Source: a virus
Direction: 5' to 3' (one strand)
IMG/VR virus record: IMGVR_UViG_3300046163_000090
Location: 53,478-117,477 of that record
Length of the DNA stretch: 64,000 bases
The first letter of the stretch is position 1, and each line of letters opens with the position of its first letter. The notes below the pieces were generated by a model. The model was not told the DNA's origin. It did not search any database and saw only the letters and a list, made by a program, of their open reading frames with translations. Made by a program: the position numbers and the translations under genes. Positions 42,140-64,000 of this stretch are shown here, piece after piece.

Positions 42140-42868
42140 TTAATGGGCTAAATATGCAATACCTTTTTTGCATCCCTTGATGAAGCATAAGTTGCAATTA
42201 TGAGCTTGGCAAGTTGCAAGAATCTTGCCGTCCTCGCCCTTAACATAAGTTGCAGGGCAAACAAAATGTCCGTCTTGCTCTGCTTTTGTCTTGCTAGTGT
42301 AAACTGAAGTGCCCGCGTCGAGTCCGTCAACTTGTGGAGCTGGCTCATCTACATAAATAGCGCTTGGCTTAATGTTTACATTTTTAAGGCTTGCCAACTT
42401 CTGCAAGTGTGGAAGCTGAGAGTCGCGTTTCCATTCACGAGTTGGAAACCAAAAGCGAATTGTTGGGAATTGTTCGCAAATGCGAATCCACGCGGCAATG
42501 TAGCGAGGGGAAAACAAATCGCCTGAATCATGAACGCGAAAAAGATCTGTGTTTGTTTTCTTGAGCTTTTTCTTGTTGCCTTGCTTGTCGAAATACTTTG
42601 CGCGAATTTGCTTGCACATTGCATCAACAAAAGTGTCGCCATTGTCTTGATGTAGTGACTTTGTTATGAGATTCGCCTTGCCTTGCAAACTTGCCTTGAC
42701 ATTGGAAAACATATAAAAGCCTTTGCAAGCATAGCAAGAATCACAAATAAACTTTTTTGCTTTGTCCTTAATCTTTGCCAATAGCTGCGCGGCAGGGCAA
42801 TACTTGAAAGCTGGAATGTTGAACGAATAGCAAGGCATCTTGCTTGGATTGGATAGTAAGTTAATCAT
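42140..42868 (-). CDS. Gp88-like protein
   Basis: SKMPCYSFNIPA..CP..CDSCYACKG..FRVHDSGD..FWFPTR..CPA..C..C..C; leaderless after TTGCAA-17-TATATT. Confidence 0.8.
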   Translation of the reverse strand: MINLLSNPSKMPCYSFNIPAFKYCPAAQLLAKIKDKAKKFICDSCYACKGFYMFSNVKASLQGKANLITKSLHQDNGDTFVDAMCKQIRAKYFDKQGNKKKLKKTNTDLFRVHDSGDLFSPRYIAAWIRICEQFPTIRFWFPTREWKRDSQLPHLQKLASLKNVNIKPSAIYVDEPAPQVDGLDAGTSVYTSKTKAEQDGHFVCPATYVKGEDGKILATCQAHNCNLCFIKGCKKGIAYLAH

Positions 42869-46853: not shown

Positions 46854-47009
46854 TTAATGTTTGCCTTTCTTTGTAAAATTTTCTAAATAATATGTAACCC
46901 GTTCAATAGCTTCATTTTGTTTTAGTGTTTCCTCTTTCATTTCAGGGTCGTCAATAACATTTTGATTGGCTAGGTCTAATACAATTTCTAATGCTTCTGT
47001 GATATTCAT
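46854..47009 (-). CDS. hypothetical protein (51 aa, not in ORF track)
   Basis: MNITEALEIVLDLANQN..; fills the gap and has an ATGA overlap with 47006. Confidence 0.6.
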   Translation of the reverse strand: MNITEALEIVLDLANQNVIDDPEMKEETLKQNEAIERVTYYLENFTKKGKH

Positions 47010-47419
47010 GATATATATGCTGTTACTTTGTTGTGTGTTAATGAAACTTCATCTGCGTAGTATACAAAACTTTCATCCTTCTTGTCAACAAAAGTTTCAT
47101 ACTTGTATGGATTGTATGTTACCTCAACTTCCCTAGTGATAACTTGGGGATTGCGAGATACATTCTCAGCATCCTGAAGATAGCCCTTGACGAAAGCATG
47201 GACATTCTTACGCTTCTCGCGAAGCACTTTCTCTCTACCCTTGACATCGACATGAAAATAGCAATCCCATAATCCAATAGCATGATCCTTTGGGATGTGT
47301 GCCTTGACTAATCCATGTTGCTTGATGCTCCAACAATCCTTGTGAAGATTCTTGTAAACATATACGGGACGATTCTTTTTAATCGTGTATCTTGGGTCGT
47401 GTTGGTTTCTTAAGATCAT
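47006..47419 (-). CDS. conserved phage protein (VYxNLH..KRKNVHAFV..YNPY family)
   Basis: VYVYKNLHKDCWSI..GREKVLREKRKNVHAFVKG..VTYNPYK..FV. Confidence 0.8.
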   Translation of the reverse strand: MILRNQHDPRYTIKKNRPVYVYKNLHKDCWSIKQHGLVKAHIPKDHAIGLWDCYFHVDVKGREKVLREKRKNVHAFVKGYLQDAENVSRNPQVITREVEVTYNPYKYETFVDKKDESFVYYADEVSLTHNKVTAYIS

Positions 47420-47872: not shown

Positions 47873-48071
47873 TGAAATTTTTAATTCATATTCAATTTTA
47901 ATTTAATTTAATTTTATATCATATATATTATATTTGAGACTTATTTATTTGTTATTGATTTGTTCCCTATTGATTTGTATATTGTATACTGTATTTATTG
48001 TTATGATCTCCAGCCAGCAATAAAACAAACAGTGCAAATTAAGGTCCACATGATTGAGTCTAGATATTCCA

Positions 48072-48326
48072 TTACTTGGCGACGTTTAAAGCTTCCTTGA
48101 GAAGGTCGTACTGTTTGCCCGACAAAAAGACTGACCTGCAATAGTCTATGTCGTTGCCCTCTACATCTGCAATTCGATCTGCAGCTAACCAGGCTGATAC
48201 CCGTTCGCGTTCCATGCCTCCCCATTTAATAACAACTTTCATTGCGGGAAAGTGCTCGGCGATCTCTGCGAGCTCTGCTTTAGTAAGGTATCCGTAGTTT
48301 GATAATATGTTTTTTAATGTCTTCAT
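48072..48326 (-). CDS. hypothetical protein
   Basis: 84 aa with a TTGACT-type promoter upstream. Confidence 0.7.
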   Translation of the reverse strand: MKTLKNILSNYGYLTKAELAEIAEHFPAMKVVIKWGGMERERVSAWLAADRIADVEGNDIDYCRSVFLSGKQYDLLKEALNVAK

Positions 48327-48363
48327 GATAGTACTATAGTAAATAAATGAACCCTAGTCAAAC

Positions 48364-48414
48364 AAAAAACCCCCCAATGTAAGGAAATACCACTAAACTT
48401 ACGAAGGGGGGTTT
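48364..48414 (-). terminator. terminator-like hairpin downstream of the candidate ncRNA
   Basis: Minus strand AAACCCCCC..GTAAG..CTTAC..GGGGGGTTTTTT. Confidence 0.7.
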
Positions 48415-48435
48415 ATGTACAATGAAACAAAATAT

Positions 48436-48738
48436 GTGTGGGGAAGGATTACTGTATACCTCCAACTTTTCGGCGCGAACATCAGTTCATGGATTACCTA
48501 CTTCGAACTACAGACTAGACATGGTATTGTCGTTTGGCTCATCCGATTGGACTCTACCAACCCCACCACAGGGATCTGCATACCTTAGCCCGCTCACGAC
48601 AGGCTTATTCGAGTCACCCACAGGAAGGATTATAAGCCCTTCCAAAGTGAATTGAGTCATGGTCATCCGCTCGCTACCCATTCGGCATCTGATCTTACGA
48701 TTCTCACCGACCTTAGCTTCGTCCGATGCTGACTCAAA
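48436..48738 (-). ncRNA. candidate ~300-nt structured non-coding RNA
   Basis: GC-rich island with no credible ORF and many helices (TTGAGTCA/TGACTCAA, GGAAGGG/TCCTTCC, TGTGGG/CCCACA, AGCCTG/CGGGCT). Has its own promoter, a boxA-like motif and a terminator. Confidence 0.75.
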
Positions 48739-48744
48739 TTAAAA

Positions 48745-48842
48745 TATTAAAGAACAAAAAATTTAGATTTATTTTATTTATTTGAGTTAATCTTTCTCAA
48801 TGTTATGGTATATATTATACTATATTAAATGTTATTTGTCAA
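48745..48842 (-). promoter_or_regulatory. consensus sigma70 promoter plus boxA-like antitermination motif
   Basis: TTGACA(48842-48837)-17-TATAAT(48819-48814); TGTTCTTTAATA at 48756-48745. Confidence 0.85.
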
Positions 48843-48967
48843 GAAGTAATTTGTATTTTGATGAGAAAATATCAAGAGTGTTCAAATAAGCGCGACCTGC
48901 TTGTTCTGCGACATCCACAGACTCTATGCCTCTTGATATAATGTTATCACTTAGTAACCAGACGAAA

Positions 48968-49210
48968 TTATTTATTTAGACTCCTTAATTCTCGCAATAA
49001 TTCTCTTATTTTAAAAAAGCTTTTATCGGGCGGAAACAATTTAGCATGAGCCTCAGAGTCGTGCGCTCTATATAAATCATCCACAAATTCTTCCACTTTA
49101 ACTAATTTAATTAACATTAATTCTTTTTTAGTTAATTTTTCATATAACTCTTCATTAGTTGCAAATAAACTAACATCTTCTTTATCAATAATTTTCTTTA
49201 TCTCTGTCAT
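48968..49210 (-). CDS. hypothetical protein
   Basis: Start reassigned to MTEIKK after a TTGACT promoter. Confidence 0.6.
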   Translation of the reverse strand: MTEIKKIIDKEDVSLFATNEELYEKLTKKELMLIKLVKVEEFVDDLYRAHDSEAHAKLFPPDKSFFKIRELLRELRSLNK

Positions 49211-49249
49211 AGTATATATATTAGTGAAGTTTAAGATAGAAGTCAAGGA

Positions 49250-49675
49250 CTATCGACACTCGTTGAATACTTTCATGTTTTTGTCATGACGCAGTTTCTT
49301 GAGAGCTTTAGCCTCGATCTGACGCACTCGCTCACGAGTAAGACCGACGGCAGTGCCTATCTCCTGCAATTTAAACGAACGATTAGGTTGGAATATGGTT
49401 GCCCATGTTCTCATCGCTTGTAGTTTATCGTCAACTTTATCGCCCTCAAAATCGGGTATATCTATTTTGCGCGACTGAATATCATATAACATTTCATTAA
49501 TGTATTCATCATTTTCGATAGCTTCCTTCCTTTGTTGCAATAGTCGAATAATAACAAAGCGATTTTCTTGAAATAATTTTAATTCATCATCATTTAATTC
49601 ATAATAATCTACAAATCCTTGATCAATTTCTTTTGAATTTTGTGCGATATGGTCTTTAAGTTCTTGGTCTGTCAT
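49250..49675 (-). CDS. sigma70 region 4-like HTH protein
   Basis: C-terminal LQEIGTAVGLTRERVRQIEAKALKKLRH closely matches RpoD region 4.2. Confidence 0.85.
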   Translation of the reverse strand: MTDQELKDHIAQNSKEIDQGFVDYYELNDDELKLFQENRFVIIRLLQQRKEAIENDEYINEMLYDIQSRKIDIPDFEGDKVDDKLQAMRTWATIFQPNRSFKLQEIGTAVGLTRERVRQIEAKALKKLRHDKNMKVFNECR

Positions 49676-63776: not shown

Positions 63777-64000
63777 TACCTGTGATTATATACCATATTT
63801 GTAGAAAAATCAAGAGAAAAAATACACAAATTGCTCCCAATAAAACTTTTGTTGCTTCAATTCTGTCTTTCATTTGTTTTCTTTCTGCACTCAATATTTG
63901 ATTTATACAATTCTTGTTGTCGTTTAAGTTCATTAGTATCTTGTTGTAGTAAGCGAATACCCTTGTTTTCTGTTATATTACCATCAAGAATTCCTCTGAC

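Follow-up and report, generated by a model that had tools for sequence, protein, structure and literature searches.

The locus described here lies on the minus strand of a 64-kb stretch of viral DNA, called the window (the whole stretch that was analysed), from the IMG/VR record IMGVR_UViG_3300046163_000090; the record holds 117,477 bases and is estimated to be 84% complete. On balance, the locus appears to be a self-contained and separately promoted non-coding RNA (ncRNA) gene of about 440 nucleotides (nt) in an uncultured marine tailed phage, and its core is a manA-family RNA. In the proposed order of elements, a consensus sigma-70 promoter would come first, then a leader that carries a 5' hairpin and, unpaired, a boxA-like element; an optional slot, the manA core, and an intrinsic terminator would follow. 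The features are given below in the direction of transcription.

48814..48842, minus strand: promoter P1, TTGACA-17-TATAAT, a 12/12 match; from the spacing, transcription would start at about 48807.
48782..48800, minus strand: 5' leader hairpin (TTGAG, 9-nt A-rich loop, CTCAA), from RNAalifold on 15 insert-free relatives.
48745..48756, minus strand: boxA-like 12-mer TGTTCTTTAATA, unpaired in the consensus fold of 15 sequences.
48652..48737, minus strand: "domain 1" of an initial annotation, an 86-nt hairpin module that is lineage-specific and separates the leader from manA.
48433..48643, minus strand: manA-family RNA core (Rfam RF01745), 211 nt, a full model match (1-192 of 192).
48364..48414, minus strand: intrinsic terminator, a C6/G6-closed hairpin with an inner GTAAG/CTTAC stem, then a T-run.
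48333..48361, minus strand: predicted promoter-like site P2, TTGACT-17-TATAGT, whose end is 6 nt from the ATG of the downstream gene.
48072..48326, minus strand: gene of 84 amino acids (aa), a conserved open reading frame (ORF) and the usual downstream neighbour.

The core is a manA-family RNA. With the covariance models of Rfam 15, it matched manA RNA (RF01745) at 81.7 bits (E 3e-19), where the gathering score is 55.2, and this was the only Rfam match at gathering scores in the window. The initial annotation, which was made from the letters alone, had proposed an RNA of a family that it could not assign; its 3' 211 nt are full-length manA RF01745, and the match spans the GGAAGGG hairpin and all of the "domain 2" of that proposal. 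The strong match confirms the RNA and removes its novelty, an outcome that the annotation itself had foreseen for an Rfam search. When matches at E up to 10 were admitted over 48000-49300, only one 9.9-bit chance match was found besides manA. For GOLLD, ROOL, OLE, RNase P, transfer-messenger RNA (tmRNA), and 6S, no match was obtained across the window at gathering score, nor over 48000-49300 at E up to 10, and these families are therefore excluded at that sensitivity; ARAGORN listed no transfer RNA (tRNA) or tmRNA in the window. The core belongs to an already catalogued family and is not a new RNA class.

According to the Rfam model and RNAalifold, the core of the window has hairpins at its 5' and 3' sides and, in addition, a long-range closing stem, a hairpin with a GNRA loop, and loops that read GUGGUG and ACCA. 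Most helices that the initial annotation had named here are present: four of them are paired both in the Rfam manA model and in an independent RNAalifold consensus, namely the hairpins GGAAGGG/TCCTTCC and GGAGG/CCTTC, the hairpin with the GNRA loop GTGA, and the long-range closure TGTGGG/CCCACA. Two others fared less well. The supposed GGTAT/ATACC helix is not supported: the covariance model and the alifold structure alike place its ATACC in a hairpin loop. In place of GTTGG/CCAAT, the supported pairing is TTGG with a CCAA further 3', around an inner GTCC/GGAT hairpin. The loops GUGGUG and AUACCA (48560-48570 and 48522-48530, minus strand) are complementary, and a pseudoknot, which was already queried in 2010, or an intermolecular kissing contact is possible.

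Relatives were fetched through the 84-aa protein, which gave 25 IMG/VR loci (L numbers below) whose homologues are 50-70% identical to it across residues 1-83/84. All but one of these loci have manA about 95-100 nt upstream of the 84-aa gene, at 61-93 bits; the exception (L006) is cut by the contig end. The clade comprises more than 50 loci in IMG/VR. Eight more of its members carry manA at 71-81 bits, so that the RNA stands above the curated cut-off in the window and 32 relatives. After removal of duplicates, 19 complete upstream sequences remained, the window included; counts of 20 given below add L006. A DNA similarity search of 48300-48900 against 50,697 phage records gave no match, and a pattern search for relatives via the upstream 141-aa protein gave 40 matches, none of which was confirmed.

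The manA part of these sequences was aligned as A1 (16 distinct rows), for which RNAalifold gave a structure of 49 pairs. Compensatory changes on both sides are seen in 22 of the 49 pairs, as against 3-5 when the partners were slid, and 98.5% of the cells pair, as against 39-52% after a shift of the partners by 1-3 columns. A1 is also the alignment that yielded the structure, which to that extent favours this structure over its slid versions. None of 500 shuffles matched the observed paired percentage or covariation score. Homologues were thus collected and covariation was found, as the earlier proposal had called for, and its contrary outcomes, codon-type conservation or a lack of covariation, did not appear: the region is not coding, and covariation is present. 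The loop-loop pairing noted above was read by eye on A1; both of its sides are changed in L009 and L012 (GUGGCG/AUGCCA; UGGC/GCCA), and it is mismatched at the same position in L011/L018, L016, and L023-L026 (three types). Among the 15 insert-free sequences, column identity is 94.5% in the leader hairpin, 94.4% in the boxA-like element, 80.8% in the manA core, and 57% in the 3' tail.

The elements around the core are consistent with a unit of its own. Promoter P1 is the sole 12/12 match among the 12 sites of the window that score at least 11/12, and it recurs as TTGAC[AT]-17-TATAAT in 19/19 distinct relatives (window included), one of which has TATTAT. Downstream of it, the leader (48807-48739) has 14.5% GC, and the GC-rich island that follows (48738-48436) has 49.2% as compared with 35.5% window-wide. 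The unit ends in the C6/G6 hairpin and T-run of the intrinsic terminator (-19.7 kcal/mol, z -2.5; 2/200 shuffles equally good). A simple terminator scan did not list this hairpin, whose long interior loop is probably beyond the scan's loop limit; nevertheless, a strong hairpin (tail -21 to -41 kcal/mol) with T5-T8 is found at the same place in 20/20 distinct sequences, with unrelated stem sequences. The initial annotation had named the promoter, the AT-rich leader, the GC-rich island, and the terminator, and all four hold, as does its overall reading of a structured ncRNA with its own promoter and terminator. For a link to the dyad elements about 560 bp away, on which that annotation had speculated, there is no indication.

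Folding energies, taken alone, are unremarkable. The fold of the whole unit has z -1.0, with 15/100 shuffles equally good, and that of domain 1 has z -1.6, with 12/200 shuffles equally good. When the whole unit is folded to minimum energy, the terminator and the manA-like helices are both present. The case for more than chance is carried by the covariance-model score and by conservation and covariation in the relatives.

The most conserved parts of the locus are the hairpin and the boxA-like element of the leader. The hairpin, TTGAG...CTCAA, is present in 19/19 distinct sequences, with a compensatory TTAAG/CTTAA in L023, L024, and L026. In four further loci (L151, L155, L156, and L187), the hairpin is lost but the boxA-like element is kept, a few bases after the -10 hexamer; of these, L151, L155, and L187 have a confirmed manA (77-81 bits), and L156 runs into the end of its locus. 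The boxA-like motif had been pointed out before, and it is both real (TGTTCTTTAATA at 48756..48745) and conserved among relatives: the 12-mer reads most often TGATCTTTAACA among the 19 distinct sequences, and TGTTCTTTAATA in the window and L002. Of the 25 loci fetched through the protein, 24 have the element once, in the manA leader, and the remaining locus is cut. The element starts 41-46 nt after the -10 hexamer in most relatives and 57 nt after it in the window. Against GYTCTTTAANA, the gamma-proteobacterial boxA consensus given by Baniulyte et al. 2017 (PMC5725501), the 11-nt core of the window and L002 matches at 11/11 positions, although this consensus may not be that of the host; the other distinct relatives have GATCTTTAA[AC]A (10/11) or GATCTTTTACA (9/11).

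It is possible, and is put forward tentatively, that the boxA-like element acts through Nus factors. It would then recruit NusB-S10 of the host together with the remaining Nus factors, in the manner of ribosomal RNA (rRNA) operons (rrn), and this would protect a long untranslated transcript from Rho and aid its co-transcriptional folding. PMC13753749 describes boxA as essential and sufficient for formation of the antitermination complex, and states that Bacillus subtilis rrn operons may start with a small 5' hairpin followed by a boxA-like element. PMC7862264 cites work that places boxA ahead of CRISPR arrays, likewise an untranslated transcript. Several observations weigh against a Nus site. 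Most relatives have A at consensus position 2 (Y) and are thus off the published consensus; the boxA-like word GNTCTTTAANA is not enriched in the window (2 copies, 1.8 expected); no sense-strand boxA-like copy was seen before tRNA genes in 24 loci of 6 kb; and the leader is conserved in its entirety, beyond the boxA-like element, so that another function is possible. A leader-trailer helix is absent from the RNAalifold consensus fold of the 15 insert-free sequences.

That the conserved leader is not a Nus-factor site but another signal is a serious possibility, if still short of a probable one. Candidates are processing by RNase E or RNase III, binding of a phage protein or Hfq, and a DNA operator just past the start site. 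Conservation throughout the leader, rather than of the 12-mer alone, would fit any of these, as would the deviation at position 2 and the chance frequency of the boxA-like word; moreover, the sole hairpin variant, TTAAG/CTTAA, preserves a DNA palindrome as well as an RNA helix. RNA-library contigs that match exactly span the manA core and not the leader, but contig cover is uninformative on RNA ends. On the other hand, the promoter-proximal and unpaired position before a long untranslated RNA, the order of hairpin and then boxA, and the match at 10-11 of 11 positions are rrn-like, and the boxA-like element is retained where the hairpin is lost.

In the window phage, manA is rather probably a stand-alone product than a switch. 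Host RNA polymerase would make the RNA at a high level early in infection, and transcription would stop at the hairpin terminator; no rrn-type complex is known to override intrinsic terminators efficiently. The opposing view is that the manA fold is a cis-acting riboswitch or leader, which senses a ligand or factor and sets read-through into the 84-aa gene and beyond. It is judged unlikely, although it has the standing classification on its side, since Rfam and Weinberg et al. 2010 (PMC2864571) type manA as a probable cis-regulator and riboswitch candidate. An aptamer-like fold, then a terminator, and then a gene is also the layout of such a regulator. Further, the 84-aa gene follows manA in 24/24 protein-ascertained loci that have the region and in 26/32 loci ascertained via the leader pattern, which would also be expected of a cis-regulator, and three members of the clade (L150, L155, and L187) have no terminator and an ORF 18-29 nt after manA, the layout of a 5' untranslated region (UTR). 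Both observations count against a stand-alone product. In L192 and L209, the 84-aa homologue is seemingly divergent, as judged by eye.

The window itself does not have the 5' UTR placement on which the cis-regulatory typing rests, because the terminator and P2 separate manA from the next gene. A promoter-like site of the form TTGAC[AT]-16/17-CATACT, or with a similar hexamer, and with an ATG 6-7 nt on, lies between the terminator and the gene in 20/20 distinct sequences; therefore, the 84-aa gene need not depend on read-through. In the predicted structures, which are thermodynamic models, the terminator stems share no strand with manA, both form together at minimum energy, and the consensus fold of 15 sequences contains no alternative pairing. 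No ligand is known, and neither a ligand nor an in vivo function for manA was found in the literature searched.

The wider manA family bears on the same question. A sequence-only nhmmer profile of the clade found 3 of the 120 listed classic loci, and regular expressions together with Rfam were used instead. A word of 14 specified bases gave at least 120 IMG/VR stretches as the classic manA set, and 105 of those listed pass a manA regular expression. When Rfam was run on 20 listed classic loci, 15 scored 153-197 bits and five fell below the gathering score as a separate look-alike group. These five (L051, L090, L111, L119, and L133) share the manA start word and a similar 3' half, are immediately followed by a terminator, and are possibly an uncatalogued manA-like branch. 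Downstream contexts were counted in the 88 classic loci, among the matches listed, that have at least 100 nt downstream; the counts that follow refer to listed loci throughout. A tRNA or a terminator lies downstream in 36/88, which argues against a switch, and the 5' UTR context, which these 36 lack, is an annotation and not a defining structural trait. A tRNA is found within 80 nt in 6/88, including the Rfam-confirmed L032, L067, and L128, where it is 5-14 nt away. A conserved long imperfect hairpin with a T-run directly follows manA in 21/88 (e.g. L042, L045, L060, L087, and L144); it begins (A)GACCTAAGATGCAAC, ends GGGCAGATGGTC(T), and matched no Rfam family at gathering score in L044, L045, L047, and L056. 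Other, perfect-stem terminators follow in 9/88. Against a product stands the remainder: by the scans used, 52/88 have neither a terminator nor a tRNA, and 48 of these have an ATG within 60 nt.

Upstream, a TTGAC-N17-19-TAnnnT promoter ends 20-31 nt before the core word in 64/87 listed classic loci, and manA is therefore typically the extreme 5' end of its transcript; the boxA-like leader is absent from the 87. Two side observations belong to these loci. A tRNA starts about 5-19 nt past the manA 3' end, on the same strand, in L032, L053, L067, L086, L122, and L128, and RNase P cleavage could set the 3' end of manA there. At L056:312-360 and L029:2608-2659, a glutamine riboswitch aptamer (RF01739; 37.7 and 35.1 bits, respectively) is found within a few hundred bases of a classic manA.

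Between the leader and manA, the clade has a slot that is usually empty. In 15/19 distinct sequences, only 31-35 nt separate the end of boxA from CCTGTGGG of the manA P1 hairpin, and L002, L005, and L011 have different inserts in the same place. Domain 1 of the window is best described as one filling of this permissive slot for accessory hairpin modules. Its proposed closing helix TTGAGTCA/TGACTCAA is in the minimum-energy fold, and the proposed inner GCATC/GATGC helix is missing from it. When IMG/VR was scanned with the leader pattern, 104 stretches were returned, of which 36 continue into a manA-like start, 64 show neither feature, and 4 are cut. One slot type is common to L150 and L151 and another to L162 and L179/L192/L209, in both cases with the outer stem changed on both sides; L194 has the L005/L231 type and the L162 type in tandem, and L218 has a 236-nt insert. 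By blastn-short, domain 1 and the other inserts have in common only the TTGAG...CTCAATTCAC junction and an 8-nt GNRA-hairpin word.

The earlier reading of a new two-domain RNA class of about 300 nt, without relation to known families, is very improbable. It could draw on the facts that domain 1 matches only itself within its own record, has no exact 31-mer or 18-mer elsewhere in IMG/VR and no Rfam match at E up to 10, and that the manA scores of the clade are far under those of classic members. However, the RF01745 match is full-length and above the curated cut-off in the window and its relatives, and domain 1 lies outside the manA model and is absent from 15/19 distinct relatives; a conserved RNA of two domains is not supported. 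For the core, a new class is refuted by this match, and the idea could apply only to the inserted module. A metatranscriptome contig of run X16 (214 nt, depth 5.4) matches 48660-48725 with 3 differences and 4 gaps; since it continues at either end into sequence that differs, there may be a related module in some other setting.

A small protein gene, either the 57-aa sense ORF (48681..48508) or the 77-aa opposite-strand ORF (48422..48655), is hardly credible: both ORFs exist, and the opposite strand is stop-free over the entire core in 6/19 sequences, but the stop-free lengths differ among relatives (25-48 aa sense, 50-71 aa antisense), alignment A1 has many 1-nt indels, and the substitutions in the core are base-pair-preserving doubles. 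The earlier statement that there is no credible sense-strand ORF thus stands, the 57-aa ORF being judged non-coding from the relatives.

Cover in RNA libraries hints at an abundant RNA that contains the core. Logan contigs from three RNA-library studies (four RNA runs examined) cover only 48429-48656, at a word depth of 40-140 as compared with 0-2 on the flanks. The pieces are as follows.

Run X16: a contig of 204 nt (word depth 135, 13 differences) and two exactly matching pieces, at 48447-48580 and 48551-48641.
Run X15: exact pieces at 48509-48610 (depth 40) and 48581-48642.
Run X18: 48561-48645.

One contig passes from the junction at 48656 into unlike sequence, as a relative with another insert would give. 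A check of metatranscriptome cover on the minus strand, which had been suggested at the outset, is therefore borne out for the core in three studies but not for the strand. Assembled contigs cannot show strand, ends, or level, and they may sum relatives or include DNA, which weakens the case for abundance; for the leader, the terminator, and the flanking genes, lack of RNA-library cover is no evidence of absence. Contig joints were not seen in the RNA-library contigs, and hence no circular form. At least 0.75 of the words of 48000-49300 occur in each of 14 DNA runs, which come from 11 studies; 13 are labelled seawater and one freshwater, and four are possible sources.

The record encodes homologues of rIIA and rIIB. 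manA was first described in T4-like cyanophages (Weinberg et al. 2010, PMC2864571). The phage is not one of these, because psbA was not found in the record and its rIIB is, by tblastn, at most about 31-35% identical to that of isolates; the matches are in phages of many hosts, Streptomyces phages among them. A PHROG scan left 5/10 large ORFs without a family. The 84-aa protein gave an AlphaFold2 model with a pLDDT of 86, and had no Pfam or PHROG family and no ESM Atlas neighbour. Its best Foldseek match in PDB had E 0.26, the best of 48,161 chains in VIA-align had Z 4.3, and tblastn against 50,697 phage records gave no match.

Two genes upstream of the unit, a 141-aa protein (49250-49675, minus strand) matches sigma-70 region 4 (PF04545, E 2.7e-10; PHROG sigma factor, E 1e-6), and this similarity makes it a candidate for a phage factor that modifies host transcription. 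Among 43 promoter-like sites on the minus strand (at least 10/12), seven have an ATG 5-8 nt past the -10 hexamer that opens an ORF of at least 40 aa, as compared with none of 25 on the plus strand. These sites, promoter-like and then ATG, are at 63813, 56120, 50529, 48361, 44641, 41449, and 41237 (minus strand), and early genes of the phage seem to be built as leaderless mRNAs. Two Pfam families named after mycobacteriophage L5 are matched, GP88 at 42140-42868 (minus strand, E 3e-24) and L5 gp82 at 47006-47419 (minus strand, E 4e-31). From these matches, the Streptomyces-phage rIIB, and the leaderless layout, an actinobacterial host might be conjectured. Relatives in the clade encode tmRNA, at L187:10941-11374 (minus strand, 102.6 bits) and at L156:7424-7507 (minus strand, 62.7 bits, cut by the locus end).

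What such an RNA might do is suggested by work on other members of the family. A preprint (10.64898/2026.07.01.735769) reports cryo-electron microscopy structures of manA RNAs that self-assembled in vitro into RNA-only cages, in which pentamers are joined by kissing loops and a GNRA-receptor contact and variants differ in peripheral helices. According to the same preprint, natural RNA-only multimers have been described earlier for long RNAs, and manA joins that group. By analogy, the manA core of the window would act as the product itself, most plausibly as pentamer-based multimers held by loop-loop contacts. Two points count against carrying this over. Assembly was obtained in vitro at about 3 mg/mL RNA and 10 mM Mg, and, because the clade of the window scores 61-93 bits and classic manA 153-197, the assembly behaviour may not transfer to it.

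manA has been an orphan riboswitch candidate since 2010, and the main text of the preprint is silent on how or why cells or phages make it. The terms "boxA", "terminator", "tRNA", and "in vivo" do not occur in that main text, although its supplements may document such contexts; nor does "boxA" occur in the main text of Weinberg 2010 (PMC2864571), whose Additional files 1-3 may cover gene contexts. The unit of its own, the strongest promoter of the window, the leader that resembles those of rRNA operons, the terminator, the slot, and the tRNA and terminator contexts elsewhere argue that manA is produced as a stable and abundant RNA. Taken together, the strong promoter, the leader in the style of stable RNAs, the terminator, and the variable modules would fit an RNA that is mass-made to assemble, and we infer this from the layout. 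A more far-reaching version, which is speculative and rather unlikely, would be a dedicated phage stable-RNA cassette with a boxA Nus site, a cage-forming manA, and a slot for swappable modules, in which mass-made RNA particles would display or carry the modules, with the 84-aa protein as a possible partner. Interest at the locus centres on the leader and the module slot, which suggest constructs for assembly and for Nus dependence.

Three known systems may be compared with the locus. GOLLD, ROOL, and OLE, like the RNA described here, are phage-borne and highly structured; the likeness to GOLLD and ROOL that was drawn at the outset holds in so far as manA RNAs form multimers according to the 2026 preprint, and fails in that neither these two nor OLE gave an Rfam match at E up to 10 and that the core of the window, at 211 nt, is far shorter.

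In the rrn antitermination leader as in the locus, a small 5' hairpin precedes an unpaired element that conforms to GYTCTTTAANA, the position is promoter-proximal and before a long untranslated structured RNA, and an intrinsic terminator closes the unit. The locus differs in that it is phage-borne and has a 211-nt RNA instead of rRNA, and in that the phage copies mostly have A at consensus position 2.

The closest system is the classic manA motif (PMC2864571), which likewise occurs in DNA of marine phages, immediately after a consensus sigma-70 promoter, and has the same multi-helix core. In contrast to the classic members, with their higher scores, the clade of the window adds a conserved leader of about 55 nt, with its hairpin and boxA-like element, and an insertion slot for extra hairpin modules.

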